Shown in pieces: positions 7,576-64,000 of a DNA stretch of 64,000 nucleotides. The stretch is from the NCBI GenBank assembly GCA_947632405.1, contig CANRPE010000001.1, positions 42,095-106,094 on the forward strand, in the 5' to 3' direction. Numbering within the stretch: the stretch's first letter is position 1; every line of letters begins with the position of its first letter. Below the pieces are notes generated by a model, which saw only the letters and a list, made by a program, of their open reading frames with translations, was not told where the DNA came from and ran no database searches. Position numbers and translations under genes: made by a program. The DNA is from an uncultured Bacilli bacterium. GTDB lineage: Bacteria > Bacillota_I > Bacilli_A > RF39 > UBA660.

Positions 7576-9507
7576 CTAAATATCTAAATTTTGAACATAT
7601 CCAGCATTTTCTTCAATAAACTTTCTTCTAGGTTCTACTTCATCACCCATTAATTTAGAAAATACAGCATCAGCTGTCATACAATCATCAACTGTTATTT
7701 TTCTTAGAATTCTTTTTTCAATATCCATTGTTGTTTCATTTAATTCTTCCGCATCCATTTCTCCTAAACCTTTCATACGAGCAATTTCTGCTTTTTGTCT
7801 AACATTTTCTGGAAGTGATTGAAGATATTTTTCTTTTTCTTCTTCATTTAACACATATTTTCTAGTTTTACCATGCATAATTCTAAATAATGGTGGTTGA
7901 GCTGCATAGACATGTCCTGCTTCTACAATTGGTTTAAAAAATCTATAAAATAAAGTTAAAAGTAAAACTCTAATATGAGATCCATCAACATCGGCATCAG
8001 TCATAATAATTATTTTATCATATCTTAATTTTTCTAAGTTAAATTCTTCACCAATTCCCGTACCAAATGCAGTTATAATTGTTCTTATTTCTTCATTATT
8101 CAATGCTCTATCTAATCTATTTTTTTCAACATTCAAAATTTTTCCCCTTAAAGGTAAAATAGCTTGTGTCATAGAATCTCTACCTTTTTTTGCAGAACCT
8201 CCAGCTGAATCTCCTTCGACTATAAATATTTCAGAAACTTTTGGATCTTTACTTTTACAATCAGATAATTTTCCAAAAAAGTTTGTAACAGCTAAATCAC
8301 TTTTTCTTGTTATTTCTCTTGCTTTTTTTGCTGCATTTCTTGCTCTACAAGCTAACATTGATTTTTCTACAATTAATTTTGCTTCATCTGGATTTTCTAA
8401 TAAAAATTTTTCAAATCCGCTTGCAAAAACATTATCTGCTAATTTACGAACTTCAGAGTTTCCAAGTCTTCCTTTAGTTTGTCCTTCAAATTGTGGATTA
8501 GGATGTTTACATGAAATAATCATTGTTAAACCTTCCTTTACATCATCACCTGTCAAAGATTCGTCTTTTTCTTTTAATATTCCACTCTTTCTAGCATAAT
8601 TATTAATAACTCTTGTTAATGCTCTTTTTACTCCTTCCTCATGAGTTCCACCATCATGAGTATTTATATTATTAACAAACGAATAAATATTTTCATTATA
8701 TCCAGTATTATATTGCATTGCTACTTCAAACATAACTCCATTTTCTTCACCTTCTAAGTGAATTATATCTTCATGTATTGGAGTTTTTTCTTGATTTATA
8801 AATTTAACATATTCAGAAATACCACCTTCATAAATAAATGATTCTCCTGTAGTATCTTTTTCATCTCTATCATCACGTAATGTTAATCTTAATCCTTTAT
8901 TTAAAAAAGCTAATTCTCTTATTCTAATCATCAAAGTATTATAATCATAAATATCAGTATCAAAAATTTCAGTATCTGGTTTAAAAGTAACATATGTACC
9001 TGTTCTATTTTCTTCACAATTACCAATTACTTTTAATGGTTCTACAGTATGTCCACCATTTTCAAATCTCATATAATTAATTTTTCCATCTTTATATACT
9101 TTTACTTCTAACCACTTAGATAAAGCATTTACAACACTAGCTCCTACTCCATGAAGACCACCAGATACTTTATATCCTCCTCCACCAAATTTTCCTCCTG
9201 CATGTAAAACTGTATAAACTGTTTCTACAGTAGAAATTCCAGTTTTAGGATGAATTTCTACAGGAATACCACGTCCATCATCTTTTACAGTAATGGAATT
9301 ATCTTTATTTATAATTACTTCTATATTTTTACAATAACCTGCTAAAGCCTCATCTATTGCATTATCAACAATTTCCCATACTAAATGATGTAATCCTTTT
9401 ACATCAGTAGTACCTATATACATTCCTGGTCTTTTTCTAACAGCTTCTAATCCTTCTAATACTTGAATAGCTGATGAATCATATTTTTCTTCTACTTTTT
9501 CTTTCAT
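7576..9507 (-). CDS. gyrB: DNA gyrase subunit B
   Basis: 643 aa with a GHKL ATPase, Toprim ([10 protein letters not shown]) and a GyrB C-terminal domain. Confidence 0.95.
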
Positions 9508-12002: not shown

Positions 12003-13133
12003 CTAATAAGTTCTAATTGGTAAAACTAATTGAGTTAAAGTTTCATCTTCACTAGATTTAACTAAAATAGGTTTAATTTCTCCTACAAAATGAAGTTCAA
12101 CATTTTCTGTTTGAAAAGATTTTAAAGCTTCCATCATATATTTAGCTGAAAATGATATTCTTATATCTTCTTGATTATTTTTCTTAATTTCCATTTTTTC
12201 TTCTACTCTACCTATTTCTTGAGAAGAAGATTTTAATGTTAAAACATTTCCATTTGTTTCTAAAGTAACTATATTTTTTTCTTTATCACTAGTTAATATA
12301 CTTGCTCTATCAATAACATCATATAAATCATTTAAATTTGTATAAATAATTAGAAATTGATCATTTGGTATTAAATTAGAAGTATTTGGATAAGTTCCAT
12401 TAATTAATCTTGATTGAAATTTAATATTTTTATAAACAAATAATATTTTATTTCCAGAAATATTCATTTCTATATTTTCTTTTTCATCATCATCTAATAT
12501 TTTACTAAATTCCATAATATTATGACTTGGTATAACGATATTGTAATTTTCTTCTGTTGATTTTTCTAATTTTACTATTTTTCTTGCTAATCTATATGAA
12601 TCTGTAGAGTTACATTCTAAAATGTCCCCTACTACATTGAAATTAATTCCTGTTAAAACAGGTTTTGTTTCTTCATTTGAAGAAGCAAATGCTGTTTGAT
12701 TTACAATATTTTTAAATACTTTATTATTTATTAATAATTTATTTTTACTTTCATCTAAATTAATATTAGGATATTCTTCTTCACTAATACCATTTAAATT
12801 AAATTCACTATTTTCTGTATAGATTAATATTTTTAATTCATCAATAACTTCTATATTAATATATTTATCAGGTAATTTTCTAACTATATCTAATATATAT
12901 TTACCTTGAATAATAATAGATCCTTCTTTTTCTACTTTAATATCATCTTCATTATTAATATTAATAAAAGTTTGAATAGTAATGTCATTATCACTAGCTG
13001 TTAAAGTTAATCTTTTCTTTTTTAATTCAAATTTTATTCCTGCTAAAACAGGTATTAAATTTTTTGTAGATATAGCCTTAGATACTTTATTTAAAGCTTC
13101 TAATAATATTTCTTTTTTAATAGTTAATTTCAT
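12003..13133 (-). CDS. dnaN: DNA polymerase III beta sliding clamp
   Basis: 376 aa with a three-domain clamp pattern, directly downstream of dnaA. Confidence 0.9.
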   Translation of the reverse strand: MKLTIKKEILLEALNKVSKAISTKNLIPVLAGIKFELKKKRLTLTASDNDITIQTFININNEDDIKVEKEGSIIIQGKYILDIVRKLPDKYINIEVIDELKILIYTENSEFNLNGISEEEYPNINLDESKNKLLINNKVFKNIVNQTAFASSNEETKPVLTGINFNVVGDILECNSTDSYRLARKIVKLEKSTEENYNIVIPSHNIMEFSKILDDDEKENIEMNISGNKILFVYKNIKFQSRLINGTYPNTSNLIPNDQFLIIYTNLNDLYDVIDRASILTSDKEKNIVTLETNGNVLTLKSSSQEIGRVEEKMEIKKNNQEDIRISFSAKYMMEALKSFQTENVELHFVGEIKPILVKSSEDETLTQLVLPIRTY

Positions 13134-13261
13134 ATATATTCCTTCTTTCTTTTTTTTATATTTTTATATTATTACTGTGGAAAAAGTTAATAACTAATAT
13201 TTTTCTTATTATTTTTAGAAAAATTAAATTTTTTTATTGTGGAAAACTTGGGAAATTTTAA
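13134..13261. promoter_or_regulatory. oriC part 2: dnaA-dnaN intergenic region with DnaA boxes and an AT-rich unwinding region
   Basis: TGTGGAAAA DnaA-box variants at about 13176-13184 and 13239-13247. The adjacent T/A-rich tract 13141-13175 is a candidate DNA unwinding element. Confidence 0.6.
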
Positions 13262-14647
13262 CTAATTATTAACATTACCACTACCTATATCTTTTTTTAA
13301 TTTATCAATAATTTTTGCTAAATCTGGATTTATTTTTATTTCTTGTTCTATTTTTTCTACTGAGTGCATAACTGTAGAATGATCTTTTCCACCAAATTCT
13401 GTTCCTATTTTAGGAAATGATTCACTAGTCATATTTCTACATAGATACATTGCAATTTGTCTAGGAAAAGAAATATTTGAACTTCTTTTTTTACTTTTTA
13501 TATCTTCAACGGTAATTTGAAAATATTCTGAAACTATTTTTTGAATTCTATGAATATCATTTTTTTCTGAAATTCCTTTATTAATAAAATCTTTTAATGC
13601 TTCTATTGCTAAATCAAGTGTAATTTCTACACCACCCATGATTGTAGAATAAGCAACTAATCTAGTAATTGATCCTTCTAATTGTCTAACATCAGTACCT
13701 ATATTTGATGCAATATATTCGATAACATCATTAGGAATTTCTTTTTCAAAATTGCCAGCTGATATTTTTTTTCTAATTATTTCAGTTCTTAAAGAAAAAT
13801 CAGGAGGAAAAATATTAACTGTTAATCCCCAACAAAATCTTGTTCTTAAACGATCTTCTAATAATTTTAAATCGTCTGGAGAACGATCTGAAGATATTAT
13901 AATTTGTTTACTATCATTATATAATTTATTAAAGGTATGAAAAAATTCTTGTTGTGTTTGAGTAGCTCCTCCTAAAAATTGAATATCATCTATTATTAAA
14001 ACATCAACATTACGATATTTATTTTTAAAAAAGTCTACATAATTGAAATTAGTTCCTTGATCATCTTTTTTATTAATACCAATAAAATCTTGAATAAATT
14101 GATCACTTGTTACATATAAAACTTTTCGATTACTATTATTTGAAATATAATTTCCGATAGCGTGCATTAAATGAGTTTTTCCAAGACCACTATTTCCATA
14201 TATAAATAAAGGATTATACATATTTCCAGGATTTTCAGCTACAGATAAAGCAGCCGCATGAGCAAATTTATTACTATTTCCAACAATAAAGTTTTCAAAA
14301 GTATATTTATTTTTTAAATTTGATTGGAATGAGTTAGGTGGAACTCCTTTATCTTCTTTTTCAATTACTGTTTGCTCTTGTAAATTATTTAATTTGTCTA
14401 TTTCATCATTTAAAATAAATTCTAATTCAAAATTAGTTCCAGTAATTAAATTAAGTTTATCTATAATAAAGGAAGAATATTTGTCAGCTAAATGTTTTTT
14501 ATGGATTTGCATTGGGACAATAATAATGGCTTTACTATTTTCTAATTTATATAAATTAGTATCTTTAAACCAAGTATCATAGGCTAAACTAGAAAGTTCA
14601 TCTTTTACTTGTGTTAAAAAGTTAGCCCATAATACATCAACATTCAT
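13262..14647 (-). CDS. dnaA: chromosomal replication initiator DnaA
   Basis: 461 aa with AAA+ Walker A GNSGLGKTHL, Walker B LIIDDIQF, and a C-terminal DnaA-box binding HTH (GGKDHSTVMHS). Confidence 0.95.
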   Translation of the reverse strand: MNVDVLWANFLTQVKDELSSLAYDTWFKDTNLYKLENSKAIIIVPMQIHKKHLADKYSSFIIDKLNLITGTNFELEFILNDEIDKLNNLQEQTVIEKEDKGVPPNSFQSNLKNKYTFENFIVGNSNKFAHAAALSVAENPGNMYNPLFIYGNSGLGKTHLMHAIGNYISNNSNRKVLYVTSDQFIQDFIGINKKDDQGTNFNYVDFFKNKYRNVDVLIIDDIQFLGGATQTQQEFFHTFNKLYNDSKQIIISSDRSPDDLKLLEDRLRTRFCWGLTVNIFPPDFSLRTEIIRKKISAGNFEKEIPNDVIEYIASNIGTDVRQLEGSITRLVAYSTIMGGVEITLDLAIEALKDFINKGISEKNDIHRIQKIVSEYFQITVEDIKSKKRSSNISFPRQIAMYLCRNMTSESFPKIGTEFGGKDHSTVMHSVEKIEQEIKINPDLAKIIDKLKKDIGSGNVNN

Positions 14648-14699
14648 ACAACCATCTCCCCACCAAGTTCATTAATTACCAATAGTGTACATTAATTTG

Positions 14700-14880
14700 T
14701 TGAAAAAATAAATAGAAAAATCAGAATTTTTTCTTTGCACAATTATTCCACAAAATTATTAACAAACAAAAACCTAAAGAAATAAGAAAAAAAGTAAGTT
14801 TTCCACATTTTCCACAAATTTTTAATTAACATATTAAAAAAAATTATAAACAGGTCTGTGGAAATTGTGAATTATTTTAG
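14700..14880. promoter_or_regulatory. oriC part 1: DnaA-box cluster upstream of dnaA
   Basis: DnaA boxes: TATTCCACA at 14744-14752; tandem TTTTCCACA at 14799-14807 and 14808-14816; inverted TGTGGAAAT at 14858-14866; and a weaker TGTGAATTA at 14866-14874. Confidence 0.65.
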
Positions 14881-14897
14881 AAAAAGTCAATAATTAA

Positions 14898-14927
14898 TTG
14901 ACAAAACTAATTATTTATTATTATAAT
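14898..14927 (+). promoter_or_regulatory. sigma-A type promoter for rpmH-rnpA
   Basis: TTGACA at 14898-14903, an 18-nt spacer, and TATAAT at 14922-14927. It lies about 30 nt upstream of the rpmH ATG. Confidence 0.55.
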
Positions 14928-14956
14928 AATGTAGATTTATGTCTGGAGGTGGAAAA

Positions 14957-15079
14957 ATGAAAAGAACATATCAACCAAATAATCGTAAAAAAGCAAAAAA
15001 ACATGGATTTTTTGCACGTAAATTAACAAATATATTGAATAATCGTCGTCGTAAAGGACGTAAAAATATTTGCAAATAA
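14957..15079 (+). CDS. rpmH: 50S ribosomal protein L34
   Basis: My translation gives [40 protein letters not shown] (40 aa). It is preceded by a GGAGGTGG Shine-Dalgarno and is missing from the ORF track because of its size. Confidence 0.85.
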
Positions 15080-15124
15080 TCCACTAGTTTTTAACAGTGG
15101 TTTTTTACATTTCAGATAGGGGCT

Positions 15125-15466
15125 ATGAAAATGAAAAAAAAAGATATTGTCAAAAGTAAAATAGATTTTAATAATATAATAAAAACAGGAAAATCTGTTT
15201 CAAACAATAGCTTTGTTATATATTATAAAGATAATGATAAGAAACATAGTCGTTATGGAATATCAGTAGGAACTAAATTAGGAAATGCTGTTTTTAGAAA
15301 TAAATATAAAAGAAAAATAAGAATGATTATTACAACAAATAAGCTGATTTTAGAACAAAAAAAAATAGATATTATTATTATTTTTAGAAAAAACGGTTCT
15401 AATTTAAGTTATGAACAATTAGAAAAAAAATTTGTGGAATTAGCAAATAAAATAAAGGAGAATTAA
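15125..15466 (+). CDS. rnpA: ribonuclease P protein component
   Basis: 113 aa basic protein immediately after rpmH. Confidence 0.85.
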   Translation: MKMKKKDIVKSKIDFNNIIKTGKSVSNNSFVIYYKDNDKKHSRYGISVGTKLGNAVFRNKYKRKIRMIITTNKLILEQKKIDIIIIFRKNGSNLSYEQLEKKFVELANKIKEN

Positions 15467-16399
15467 ATGAAACTAAAAAATAAAAAGAAATTTCTTTTAA
15501 TTTTATTAATATTATGTTTAACTACAGGGTGTACAAAAACATTAACAGATAGTAAAAATAAACCAGTTAAAGATGATATTACAGGACAAAATTTAACAGA
15601 AAATATATTATGTAAACCAACTAATAAAAATATTATAAAATTATATGAAAAGAACAAAGTAAAAATTTCAAAGTTACCAGAATGTGATGATTTTAAAATA
15701 AATAGTGGAAAATATGAAGGATTATGGACATCTTTATTAATTAAACCTTTATCTTTTGTCTTATTAAAATTAGGAAAATTAATAGGAAATTATGCTTTAT
15801 CTTTAATTATTATTAGTTTAATTATTAGAATTATAGCATATCCATTTACTAAAAAAACAGCAATGCAATCGGAATTAATGCAAAAAGCTCAACCTGAATT
15901 ATTAAGAATTCAAAATAAATATAAAGATAAACAAGATCAAGAATCATTAACTAGACAAAGTCAAGAAATGATGAGTGTTTATAAAAAATATAATATTAAT
16001 CCAATGTCTGGTTGTTTATTTTCAATGATTCAATTACCTTTATTTATAGCGTTTTTTGAAGCTGTTCAAAGAACACCAGCAATTTTTGAAGGAAAGTTTT
16101 TAGGATTACAACTTGGAACAACTCCAATAATTGGTTTTTCTTCTTCAAATTTAATAGTTTATCTTATTTTAGTAGTTATCATAGGAATTACAACTTATTT
16201 TTCATTTAAATTAAATGCTGCTGGAAATACACTAGATCCAAGTATGGCAATGATGCCAGTTATGATGGTTGTAATGATAATTATTATGTCATTATTTATG
16301 CCATCTGCTTTAGGAATCTATTGGATTACTACGAATTTATTTACTGTGATTCAGAATTTATTAGTGAAAAGGAGTAAAATAAAATATGGAAAAGCATAG
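15467..16399 (+). CDS. yidC: membrane protein insertase YidC/SpoIIIJ (lipoprotein type)
   Basis: A lipobox LTTGC after the signal peptide and a conserved 60-kDa insertase core. It occupies the rnpA-yidC-jag position. Confidence 0.9.
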   Translation: MKLKNKKKFLLILLILCLTTGCTKTLTDSKNKPVKDDITGQNLTENILCKPTNKNIIKLYEKNKVKISKLPECDDFKINSGKYEGLWTSLLIKPLSFVLLKLGKLIGNYALSLIIISLIIRIIAYPFTKKTAMQSELMQKAQPELLRIQNKYKDKQDQESLTRQSQEMMSVYKKYNINPMSGCLFSMIQLPLFIAFFEAVQRTPAIFEGKFLGLQLGTTPIIGFSSSNLIVYLILVVIIGITTYFSFKLNAAGNTLDPSMAMMPVMMVVMIIIMSLFMPSALGIYWITTNLFTVIQNLLVKRSKIKYGKA

Positions 16400-61219: not shown

Positions 61220-61274
61220 GGCAACTTCATTAGAAGTTGCTTTTTGGTTAATAATTCGTCATTTTTGGAAAATT

Positions 61275-62033
61275 ATGGTAAAATTAGAAAATGGTGATAG
61301 TATGATAAATTTTATAATTTGTGAAGATGAGAAAACACTAAGAGAATCAACTAAAAATACAATTTTTAGTTATATGATGAATCATGATATTGACTACAAG
61401 ATATATGAATTTGAAGGTTATGATAAAAACTTTGAAGATATGGTAAAGAAAGATATAGGCTTTAAAATTTATTTCTTAGATATTGTAACTAAATGTGGTT
61501 CAGGAGTTGATGCTGCTAGAATCATAAGAGAAAAATATGATGATTGGGTATCTGCTATTATTATGATTACATCTCATCAAGAATATAAATATGAAGCTTT
61601 ATCTAGTAGACTGTTTTTACTAGATTTTGTAAATAAATTAGATAATTGTAGTAAGAAAATTAGAGAAGATATTGCTATTGCTATGAAAACATATGATAAA
61701 AGATATAAAATGCTAAGTTATGAATATAATCATACTTATTATAAATTAGAATATAGACAAATTATTTATATTGAGAAAGAACCAGATAGTAAAAGATGTA
61801 TAATTAAAACAAAAGAAAATTCACAATTAATTCCAGGAACATTAAATGAAGTATATAAGTTATTAGATGATAGATTTTTTAAAGTTCATAAAAGTTTAAT
61901 AATAAATTTAGATGAAATAGCAAGATATGAAATTAGAAAGAATAAAATTGTATTTAAAAATGGTGATCATACTCATTTAATTTCAAGGAACAATAAAAAG
62001 GAGTTGATTAAACGTGTCTGTGCCCGTAGTTAA
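61275..62033 (+). CDS. LytTR-family response regulator (AgrA-like)
   Basis: A receiver domain (FIICEDE, aspartate region YFLDIV) and a C-terminal LytTR DNA-binding domain (IIYIEKE...FFKVHKSLIINLDEI). Confidence 0.8.
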   Translation: MVKLENGDSMINFIICEDEKTLRESTKNTIFSYMMNHDIDYKIYEFEGYDKNFEDMVKKDIGFKIYFLDIVTKCGSGVDAARIIREKYDDWVSAIIMITSHQEYKYEALSSRLFLLDFVNKLDNCSKKIREDIAIAMKTYDKRYKMLSYEYNHTYYKLEYRQIIYIEKEPDSKRCIIKTKENSQLIPGTLNEVYKLLDDRFFKVHKSLIINLDEIARYEIRKNKIVFKNGDHTHLISRNNKKELIKRVCARS

Positions 62034-63303
62034 ATTAATATGTTCTATTATGATGGCAATTATAGGACTAATTTTTATTAAGAAAATAAGTGGAAGTAAC
62101 GAAAATTTATTAAAATTAAGAAATCTTGCTTTAATGTTATGTTTAATAATATTACCAGGTGTTATTTATAATTTAAGTTATAGCTATATTTATTCAATTG
62201 TATTTTATATTATTACTATAATAACATATAAACAAATATTAAATATTAGTTATACAAAAGCAACAGTGTCTTGTGGAATTATGTTAATTTACATTGCAAT
62301 ATTAGATTTTTTATCAATGTGCTTTGTAGTTGCATTTATTCCAATAGAAATAGCTAGAAATACATGGTATATGAACATTATTATAAATGTGGTTTTTTGT
62401 ATTATTTTATTATTTACATGTTATAAAACAAAATTAGGAGTAGTACTTACAAAATTAATTAATAAGATTTCAGAAAAGAAACAAACAAAAATAGTTATTT
62501 TCTTTATTCTAATATTAATAGCTATGAGTATAGTATTATCACTATCAAGCCGAAAAGTTACTATTTCAGAAATGTTTAGCACTAACTTTCTATTATTTAT
62601 TATTTTCTTCTTATTAATAATTATTTTATTTACTGAAAGAAATAGTTATGATAAATTATCCGATGAATATGATAGTTTATTCGAATATGTCAAAATTTTT
62701 GAAGATTGGATTGAAAAAGAAAGATTTATTAGACATGAATATAAAAATCAGTTAGCTGTATTATTTGCTATGACAAAAGAGAAAAAGGTAAAAGATAAAA
62801 TTAATAGTATTATTGATGAAACAATTGATATTGATAAAGATATGATTCAATCATTGACAGGTTTACCAAATGGTGGTTTAAAAGGTTTGCTTTATTATAA
62901 AATTGCTGTAGCAAAAAAGAAAAAAGTAAATATTGAAATAGATGTAAATAGTAAAGTAGAAAAATTACTTAAAAAGCTAGATGATAATCAAATAACTATT
63001 CTTTCTAAATTAATAGGTGTTTATTGTGATAATGCAATTGAAGCATCATTAGAAACCAAGAAAAAGATTGTTTCAATTGAAATTTATAGTTTTGATAAGA
63101 AAATTAATATTGCCATTAGTAATACATTTGATAAAAATAAAGATATTACTAATCGAAATGAAAAAGGCTTTTCAACAAAAGGTGAAGGTAGAGGTAATGG
63201 ATTATATTATGCAACTAAAATTTTAAATAAAAATAAATGGATTAAAGAAAATCAAAAAATTGTAAATGATATTTATATAGAAAAATTAGAAATAACTTTA
63301 TAA
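62014..63303 (+). CDS. AgrC-like membrane sensor histidine kinase (HPK10)
   Basis: Six or seven N-terminal TM helices, an H-box region RHEYKNQLAV, and a C-terminal GHKL G-box (GEGRGNGLYY). It overlaps the response regulator gene. Confidence 0.8.
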   Translation: MSVPVVKLICSIMMAIIGLIFIKKISGSNENLLKLRNLALMLCLIILPGVIYNLSYSYIYSIVFYIITIITYKQILNISYTKATVSCGIMLIYIAILDFLSMCFVVAFIPIEIARNTWYMNIIINVVFCIILLFTCYKTKLGVVLTKLINKISEKKQTKIVIFFILILIAMSIVLSLSSRKVTISEMFSTNFLLFIIFFLLIIILFTERNSYDKLSDEYDSLFEYVKIFEDWIEKERFIRHEYKNQLAVLFAMTKEKKVKDKINSIIDETIDIDKDMIQSLTGLPNGGLKGLLYYKIAVAKKKKVNIEIDVNSKVEKLLKKLDDNQITILSKLIGVYCDNAIEASLETKKKIVSIEIYSFDKKINIAISNTFDKNKDITNRNEKGFSTKGEGRGNGLYYATKILNKNKWIKENQKIVNDIYIEKLEITL

Positions 63304-63308
63304 AAAAA

Positions 63309-63338
63309 TCCTGAATTTGTAATTTCAGGATTTTTATT
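63309..63338. terminator. bidirectional hairpin between the convergent kinase gene and agrD
   Basis: Stem TCCTGAA/TTCAGGA with loop TTTGTAA, A-rich upstream and T-rich downstream. Confidence 0.6.
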
Positions 63339-63343
63339 TATAA

Positions 63344-63466
63344 TTAATCATCAAAACTATTTAATGCTTTTGGTTCATCAAGAACAAACCATACACATCC
63401 CATGCTAGCAGCTCCTGTAGCAAGTAATGCGATTGCACTAACGAATGCAGCAATTTTCTTTGTCAT
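63344..63466 (-). CDS. agrD: AgrD-like autoinducing peptide precursor (40 aa)
   Basis: My translation gives MTKKIAAFVSAIALLATGAASMGCVWFVLDEPKALNSFDD. An AAGGAG Shine-Dalgarno lies 7 nt upstream. It sits directly downstream of agrB. The Cys-X4 then acidic-Pro tail (CVWFV-LDEPK) matches the AgrD pattern (Listeria CFMFV-YEPK, S. aureus CDFIM-DEVEVPK). It is not in the ORF track. Confidence 0.75.
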   Translation of the reverse strand: MTKKIAAFVSAIALLATGAASMGCVWFVLDEPKALNSFDD

Positions 63467-63516
63467 ACTTCTACTCCTTTCTTCTTCTTATTTATTATAA
63501 ATATCAATAATGATAT

Positions 63517-64000
63517 TTATACATTATTATAATTATTAAAAGGTTGCTTTAATAATTTATACATAATAGGATTAACCATGATTGCTTCAATAATTACACT
63601 TATAATAAATATAGAAGCTAAACTTTTATTCTTAATATATAAAGCAATAACAATATATATAGCAGCTAATAAGATAGTAGCAATTTTTCTAAATATTCTC
63701 TTTTTCTTATTCTTTAAAGGTCTCTTAATTGTATCAGCAGGAGCAAATAATAAGAAATTAATAATACAAACTATACCAATCATAAGAATACTAAAGTTAG
63801 TTATATTAATATTTAATAATATATATGGTAAAACGATAAAGCATATAATTGAGGAAATTAAACATTCACTACTTTTTCTAGCATGTATACCGAATCCAAA
63901 ATATCTTAAAAAATTAAATAAAATTAAAATATAAAAAACTTCTTTTAATATTCCTAATATTATTGCTAGAGCAATAATAATTATCATCTTTGTAATTGTT
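63517..64000 (-). CDS. agrB: AgrB-family AgrD-processing membrane peptidase (N-terminus runs off the window)
   Basis: RYFGFGIHARKSSEC aligns with the AgrB catalytic His/Cys region RRHAHGAHAPSSFWC. LFAPADTIKRPLKNKKKR matches [21 protein letters not shown], and IIEAIMVNPIM matches IIEAITLLPIF. Confidence 0.8.
   Translation of the reverse strand, partial: TITKMIIIIALAIILGILKEVFYILILFNFLRYFGFGIHARKSSECLISSIICFIVLPYILLNINITNFSILMIGIVCIINFLLFAPADTIKRPLKNKKKRIFRKIATILLAAIYIVIALYIKNKSLASIFIISVIIEAIMVNPIMYKLLKQPFNNYNNV

Follow-up and report, generated by a model that had tools for sequence, protein, structure and literature searches.

The right-hand end of the window analysed here, a stretch of 64,000 nucleotides from an uncultured bacterium of the Bacilli (GenBank assembly GCA_947632405.1, contig CANRPE010000001.1, positions 42,095–106,094 of the forward strand), very probably encodes a functional Agr-type peptide quorum-sensing module, built of two converging transcription units that share one bidirectional terminator. 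A response regulator gene and a sensor kinase gene, in that order on the plus strand, converge on agrB and agrD of the minus strand, with one hairpin between both units. From left to right, region 61221–64000 holds the terminator of a glycosyltransferase gene, the regulator, the kinase, the hairpin spacer, agrD and agrB. All four genes and the hairpin had been proposed in an initial annotation made from the sequence alone and were found in place by open reading frame (ORF) calling, domain searches and folding of both strands; the convergent regulator-then-kinase layout with its shared terminator was equally borne out.

Components of the two converging units

The gene agrB (63517–64000, minus strand) encodes the predicted AgrD-processing membrane peptidase, of which residues 37–196 lie in the window and the first 36 codons past base 64000. 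Its product matches the Pfam family AgrB (PF04647) with 91.2 bits against a cutoff of 23, has the AgrB-like model PRK01100 as its best NCBIfam match (108 bits, under the 282-bit cutoff) and displays five hydrophobic segments by hydropathy. Nine public metagenome contigs encode a kinase and a 40-amino-acid peptide exactly identical to those described here and are identical to the window wherever they overlap it. In these contigs agrB is complete (196 amino acids, TTG start, GGAGG ribosome-binding site), and the catalytic His and Cys residues (H75 and C82) are invariant among 81 AgrB sequences. A truncated or pseudogenised agrB beyond position 64000, which the initial annotation had allowed for, was thus not found: since identical contigs carry the whole gene with its catalytic His/Cys, agrB is intact and incomplete solely owing to the window edge. 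The reading of the entire locus as a pseudogene or remnant was likewise rejected, as every catalytic residue is invariant. Upstream of agrB and divergent from it, the public contigs carry a cold-shock protein gene (csp), followed by HPF and SecA.

The small ORF downstream of agrB (63344–63466, minus strand), picked out by the initial annotation as an unannotated AgrD, translates to MTKKIAAFVSAIALLATGAASMGCVWFVLDEPKALNSFDD and reads as a 40-amino-acid precursor to an autoinducing peptide (AIP), comprising a leader (residues 1–23), Cys24, a variable core (25–29) and a recognition tail (D30-E31-P32...D40). It is preceded by a ribosome-binding site (AAAGGAG, 8 nt 5′ of the ATG) and is already called as a gene in public assemblies, though without a name. 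The peptide has no match in Pfam. A word-indexed search recovered 46 homologues at 63–100% identity, and no more than 42, all identical in layout, came from a profile search run exhaustively across 1.84 billion cluster representatives. Because it directly follows agrB in all 77 related loci with a contig long enough (77/77), this ORF is not a chance occurrence. The 120 unique AgrD peptides share a conserved leader, an invariant Gly-1 and Cys0 pair and a final Asp; entropy is 2.8 bits at +1, 1.2 at +2 (where Trp prevails), 2.9 at +3, 2.3 at +4 and 3.05 at +5, and positions +6 to +8 read [D/E]-E-P with no exceptions. This tally was gathered via the pattern C-x5-[D/E]-E-P, so that the constancy of the Cys and of [D/E]-E-P is in part a product of the selection; a pattern-free ORF listing gives the same arrangement at every locus. 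Putative processing signals conserved on both sides of a hypervariable core form the classical Agr pattern, and together with the ribosome-binding site and the constant position behind agrB they uphold the assignment as AgrD. Three AgrD-like clusters (P0191, P0168 and P0184) depart from this layout: in one of them Thr replaces the ring Cys (...GAASTGTVFWLLDEPK...), and the DEP motif is missing from the two others, which extend to 87 and 99 amino acids and are probably frameshifted or decayed copies.

The leader was initially described as amphipathic. Residues 5–22 instead lack charges and are hydrophobic throughout, with a mean hydropathy of 1.97 and a low helical moment, and the succession of a K/R-rich start, a hydrophobic core and A-S-x-G before the Cys makes the leader signal-peptide-like, not amphipathic. 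An ORF of this kind could also be read as a tiny lipoprotein, or a secreted peptide of the general secretion machinery, and not as an AgrB substrate. Its A-S-M-G-C, set against the lipobox [LVI][ASTVI][GAS]C, fits only the permissive form of the pattern, Ser at lipobox position -3 being atypical; single family members give sporadic weak matches to mollicute lipoprotein signal models, and the leader of YidC, the one clear lipoprotein of the window, ends in L-T-T-G-C. Such a peptide would not, however, be expected to lie always directly 3′ of agrB, to carry an AgrD-type [D/E]-E-P tail (plus P-x-x-P in distant members) or to place its hypervariable block where the AIP core lies, and the commonest family match among the 46 relatives is the NCBIfam AgrD-type model TIGR04223 (best E 0.003, below the curated cutoff). 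We regard the lipoprotein alternative as extremely improbable and keep the assignment as AgrD.

The kinase gene (62014–63303, plus strand) encodes an AgrC-like sensor histidine kinase of 429 amino acids and begins at a GTG, with an AAGGAG ribosome-binding site, that overlaps the 3′ end of the regulator gene by 20 nt. Hydropathy indicates at least six membrane segments in residues 1–206, followed by the kinase module, which matches Pfam HATPase_c_5 (25.4 bits). The best NCBIfam match is AgrC (79 bits, residues 19–424), and the only matches in the PDB are to Staphylococcus aureus AgrC (6e52, 53 bits; and 4bxi). Residues H241, N340 and G390/394/396 (G-box) are invariant among 65 sequences. The protein therefore combines the polytopic sensor, R-H-x-Y-x-N H-box and GHKL (HATPase_c_5) domain that characterize AgrC.

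The AgrA-like response regulator (61302–62033, plus strand) consists of a receiver and a LytTR domain. LytTR is detected in Pfam with 57.4 bits; the receiver match is weak (21.4 bits against a cutoff of 30.2), while D18, D69 and K121 (numbering of the 252-amino-acid form) are invariant among 66 sequences. The longest ORF, 61275–62033, encodes 252 amino acids, and the start at 61275 was that of both the gene callers and the initial annotation. This ATG sits within the conserved promoter-like sequence TATGGTAAAAT, and tblastn matches in relatives start near residue 10, which makes ATG 61302 the probable start; the resulting protein of 243 amino acids begins with a typical MINFIICEDE and is preceded by a GGTGA ribosome-binding site.

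The hairpin between the units (63304–63335) is predicted to act as an intrinsic terminator on both strands. It consists of AAAAATCCTGAA, an 8-nt loop and TTCAGGATTTTT, has a G+C core at 63309–63315/63324–63330, lies between an A-run and a T-run and fills the 40-nt gap between both stop codons. Folding energies are -15.6 kcal/mol on the plus strand and -14.7 kcal/mol on the minus strand (z = -5.9 and -5.1), unmatched by any shuffle, and the hairpin was also picked up by a terminator scan. In related loci the kinase–agrD spacer has a median length of 54 nt, and a hairpin (dG < -8) with A-run and T-run was found in 46 of 69. The same scan detected the intrinsic terminator of the upstream glycosyltransferase gene (61221–61245, plus strand; GCAACTTC-ATTA-GAAGTTGC followed by TTTTT), which parts that gene from the regulator–kinase unit and has an equivalent hairpin and T-run in most related loci. 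Right after it lies the promoter-like extended -10 of the regulator–kinase operon (61274–61284, plus strand; TG-n-TAAAAT), overlapping ATG 61275, for which a promoter scan proposed TCGTCA and TAAAAT, 17 nt apart, with the TG. The complete promoter-like sequence is found exactly in 19 of 63 related upstream regions, mostly with TGGAAAA before it, and the spacer 5′ of the regulator (median 91 nt) is made up mostly of the terminator and the extended -10. Scanned against Rfam at E ≤ 1, the locus gave only two sub-threshold chance matches and no RNAIII-like or other RNA family.

Conservation and co-divergence in RF39-like Bacilli

A profile of AgrB retrieved 80 species-representative genomes of uncultured, RF39-like gut Bacilli, variously named 'uncultured Bacilli', 'Tenericutes', 'Mycoplasma sp. 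CAG:877' and 'Candidatus Faecimonas', the last corresponding to the GTDB genus CAG-877 of order RF39. The source organism of the window would belong in or near RF39. In all 80 genomes SecA, HPF and csp are followed by the divergent agrB and agrD, and these by the kinase, regulator, glycosyltransferase and MreB genes, which read towards agrBD; the orientation is never altered. Adjacency and orientation of agrBD and the regulator–kinase pair are invariant in all loci of adequate extent (69/69). Identity to the window across related loci is 73–95% for the flanking genes, 43–80% for the regulator, 43–67% for AgrB and 32–59% for the kinase. This synteny and identity pattern marks the locus as a core feature that a large clade has inherited vertically, and as neither a mobile island nor a chance juxtaposition.

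Divergence within the module is uneven. The sensor is the most divergent part, with a mean p-distance of 0.72, whereas the kinase module and the regulator both stand at 0.47 and AgrB at 0.49. The peptide core co-diverges with the kinase sensor: distances of the two remain correlated in partial Mantel tests controlling for the regulator (r = 0.20) or for the kinase module (r = 0.15), both with p = 0.0005.

Several points weigh against the reading of the locus as a functional Agr module. The evidence for this uncultured organism is sequence-based throughout. The NCBIfam scores of regulator and kinase fall far short of the staphylococcal equivalog cutoffs (71.8 bits for AgrA, the best match of the regulator, against 400; the AgrC score of the kinase against 500), and the AgrD peptide scores 14.7 bits with TIGR04223, below the cutoff of 19, a model that only 14 of the 46 family members match even at E ≤ 1; divergent short peptides frequently fall under family-model cutoffs. 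The regulator is as near to ComE (39.8 bits) as to AgrA (35 bits) among PDB matches. Two of what we take to be the three base-contacting residues of AgrA, H169 and N201, are Lys in this regulator, so that its DNA specificity may differ from that of AgrA. Furthermore, no LytTR-type repeats (period 19–24) in the expected orientation, such as the paired direct repeats of about 9 bp with a 12–13 bp spacer that serve autoinduction of agr operons, were found before agrB or before the regulator gene, whose 5′ spacer is too short, and this leaves autoinduction unproven.

A rival reading has the kinase and regulator form an unrelated LytTR two-component system, of a bacteriocin or ComDE-like type, that merely neighbours an orphan agrBD pair. 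ComE is the full-length PDB match of the regulator, orphan agrBD pairs are known in clostridia and Clostridioides difficile, and the agrBD and kinase–regulator units are transcribed separately. Against this, the two units are never found apart or reoriented in the loci of adequate extent, the sensor co-diverges with the peptide core, and the kinase matches only AgrC, with which it groups. Gene calls over 10 kb to the left and right of the locus included neither a double-glycine leader peptide gene nor one for a C39-peptidase-containing ABC exporter, as would be expected of a ComDE-type system, and the AgrD peptide itself has no GG-type leader. A non-Agr grouping of the pair, named in the initial annotation as a possible refutation, is on this evidence very unlikely, and we retain an Agr-type module of four functionally linked genes.

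A few loci depart from the common structure. In L039 (6650–9649) the 3′ part of agrD, the terminator and the kinase gene are duplicated in tandem, so that the kinase gene is present twice and agrD is joined by another copy that has no start but the same core; this duplication could be genuine or an assembly artefact. Tandem kinase-like matches between agrD and the regulator also occur in L079 (6656–9129) and L088 (6822–9350), the first of those in L088 being fragmented. In L070 (6857–7947; Mycoplasma sp. CAG:877) a 1.4-kb insertion with fragmented ORFs, transposase-like by eye, separates agrD from the kinase. Past SecA and thus outside the window, L001 (16055–21290) carries a tyrosine integrase, ParA/ParB-like genes and a 910-amino-acid SpaA-domain surface protein, and this region may be an integrated element.

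The predicted signal and its transduction

By analogy with known Agr systems, the agrB–agrD unit of the minus strand would produce AgrD with its signal-peptide-like leader, from which AgrB, through His75 and Cys82, would cut off the C-terminal tail just before D30-E31-P32 and hand the acyl group to Cys24, closing a thiolactone. The plus-strand unit, regulator then kinase with translational overlap, would be expressed from its own extended -10 promoter right after the upstream terminator. Once secreted, the peptide would bind the polytopic sensor domain of the AgrC-like kinase, which would phosphorylate itself on His241 and then Asp69 of the regulator, thereby altering transcription.

The initial annotation predicted a Cys-X4 core and the ring CVWFV, which is probably one residue short. 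In this AgrD the Cys-to-Pro spacing is +8, and the hypervariable positions after the Cys number five, not four. The Clostridium acetobutylicum AgrD group, with CVLVTL followed by YEPKMP, has the same +8 spacing, and its six-membered, tail-less AIP was predicted, synthesised as R6T0 and detected by high-resolution mass spectrometry. Distant members of the present family read C-x5-DEPxMPKS and align with the C. acetobutylicum motif. On account of the shared +8 spacing and the five hypervariable positions we favour a six-residue macrocycle, CVWFVL, as the probable product over CVWFV. The case for the larger ring is a single analogy, that of spacing, and five-residue rings are far commoner, both of which count against it.

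The smaller ring would leave the Agr system as described, with the five-residue thiolactone CVWFV as its signal and Leu29 as the first residue of the removed tail. Such rings are the rule in staphylococci, Listeria (CFMFV) and most clostridial predictions, and a hydrophobic residue (L, F, V, I or W) occupies position +4 in every case, as would suit a ring-closing residue. No column, however, varies more than +5 (3.05 bits), and invariance sets in only from +6; Pro follows the Cys at +8, the spacing of the six-ring class, rather than at +7; and in S. aureus AgrD-II the cut falls directly before DEPKVP. We consider this smaller ring possible, if the less probable of the two, and proceed with CVWFVL. 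At the N-terminal side, the invariant Gly23 (Gly-1) and the leader end, A-S-x-G before the Cys, suggest a cleavage right before Cys24 that would yield a tail-less peptide. By analogy with clostridial AIPs, for which an S-to-N acyl shift has been demonstrated, a tail-less thiolactone would be prone to this rearrangement and so give a head-to-tail cyclic peptide.

Putative regulatory spacer, known systems and significance

The 240-bp csp–agrB spacer, just outside the window (9120–9360 of the public locus L006), contains a conserved tandem motif with the consensus TTTTCGACAAAATTCGACAAAA, or TTCGACA-N3-TTCGACA, which in this organism reads TTCTACA-AAT-TTCGACA (L006 9246–9262). The motif was noted in the same spacer of loci L011–L090 as well. 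The frequency of TTCGACA is 3.9 per kb in this spacer and 0.014 per kb in the remainder of the 813 kb of related loci, an approximately 280-fold enrichment, and its tandem form is present in 36 of 79 spacers and nowhere else in related loci. Read on the opposite strand, TTCGACA becomes TGTCGAA, the core of the Spo0A box. Tandem 0A boxes show the same 7+3+7 arrangement. A LytTR site is the less likely interpretation, given that the 10-bp period fits Spo0A tandem boxes and not LytTR pairs (21–22 bp). A Spo0A input at this spacer is plausible, if somewhat short of probable, and the Spo0A-box-like motifs would then link the Agr system to sporulation control. RF39 bacteria are predicted to sporulate and SpoIIR is encoded within the window; the presence of Spo0A itself is a literature prediction for RF39, and a conserved C-terminal Spo0A motif had no match in 0.99 Mb of local flanks, as expected where only flanks were covered.

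Adjoining the tandem motif is ACAnTTAAAGG in csp sense, which resembles what we take to be the AgrA half-site, ACAGTTAAG. A weaker second copy peaks 21 or 22 bp upstream in 21 of 60 loci, the distal copy being poor in this organism. The pair (L006 9208–9240) faces csp and ends some 29–31 nt before a conserved csp extended -10 (TGnTAAAAT); the agrB extended -10, GTGnTAWTCT, lies about 25–30 nt before the agrB start. A generic best-direct-repeat test came out scarcely above shuffles (7.27 against 6.81 matches of 10), and the peak at -21/-22 is visible only in the position-specific test. The divergent csp promoter beside agrB would be the best candidate target of the regulator, and csp as a direct LytTR-regulator target is a tentative lead, unlikely on present evidence. 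Taken further, csp rather than RNAIII or the agr genes might be the main direct Agr output of this lineage, with the spacer integrating sporulation control via tandem Spo0A boxes and a tail-less six-residue cyclopeptide diversified into species-specific pherotypes across dozens of gut species; as a whole, this scenario is speculative and rather improbable.

The initial annotation contrasted the layout with the usual co-directional agrBDCA operon. The contrast stands in that the two units converge in all related loci, but the rarity implied was overstated, as separate agrBD and agrCA operons and regulator-first orders have been published. For clostridia, the literature describes such separate operons along with orphan agrBD pairs, six-residue rings and tail-less AIPs. 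The closest likeness is to C. acetobutylicum and relatives with CA_C0082 homologues, which likewise hold all four components with agrBD and the two-component genes in separate units, and in which AgrD has the same C-x5-[Y/D]-E-P-K spacing, the confirmed six-membered tail-less AIP and a sporulation link. There, however, the units are co-directional with the kinase before the regulator, AgrD has a long amphipathic leader bearing 11 charged residues, and a LanM-like gene lies downstream, which is not the case here. The agrBDCA system of S. aureus shares the four families and their catalytic residues, the hypervariable AgrD core and AgrC sensor, and a divergent neighbour beside agrB, but is a single co-directional operon with a five-residue ring, an exocyclic tail and an amphipathic leader; its divergent P3/RNAIII has no counterpart in the Rfam scan of the present locus, where the divergent gene encodes a cold-shock protein.

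In C. difficile R20291 agr2 (agrA-agrC-agrD-agrB) the regulator also precedes the kinase and the chromosomal order A, C, D, B is the same, but the four genes are described as co-directional and possibly on one transcript, whereas here opposed units are parted by a terminator. The AgrD of C. perfringens and C. botulinum resembles that of the window in being short, in its signal-peptide-like MKK-hydrophobic leader, in having small residues ahead of the Cys and in its Trp as the second ring residue; it differs in a Cys-to-Pro spacing of +7 (ring CLWFT), and these AgrBD lack an adjacent kinase–regulator pair. Enterococcus faecalis fsrABDC, Agr-like and with the regulator gene first, is co-directional and makes a nine-residue Ser lactone ring, in contrast to the invariant Cys and five-residue variable core found here. 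We found no published description of convergent agrBD and regulator–kinase units with a shared terminator in a literature on agr gene orders that was incompletely covered, so that an earlier Firmicute example is possible; a literature search for Agr quorum sensing in RF39 returned no paper. The layout is a modest organisational variant and the mechanism the known one.

Elsewhere in the window (G+C 24.7%), the replication-origin region (12003–16399) holds, as minus-strand genes, dnaN (12003–13133) and dnaA (13262–14647), to the left of which are gyrB and gyrA; yidC and mnmG lie on the plus strand near the origin, and the strand switch falls at approximately 14.7–15.1 kb. At 21628–28833, an 850-amino-acid ORF without a Pfam match is followed by a 1529-amino-acid protein whose sole Pfam match is the FtsK/SpoIIIE ATPase domain.

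RF39-like Bacilli have small genomes, are common in the gut and lack any described representative in culture. In at least 80 of their species an Agr locus with a fast-evolving peptide core and sensor forms part of the core genome, here approximately 47 kb from dnaA, which suggests a reliance of these gut bacteria, with their reduced genomes, on peptide communication that is species-specific. What gives the locus its value is its lineage, a catalogue of pherotype predictions and a testable csp/Spo0A lead, not a new mechanism. For Agr biology it adds a clade-wide convergent example and probably extends the six-membered-ring class beyond Clostridia, and it provides dozens of concrete peptide sequences open to synthesis that could be used to probe, and perhaps help to cultivate, RF39-like organisms.

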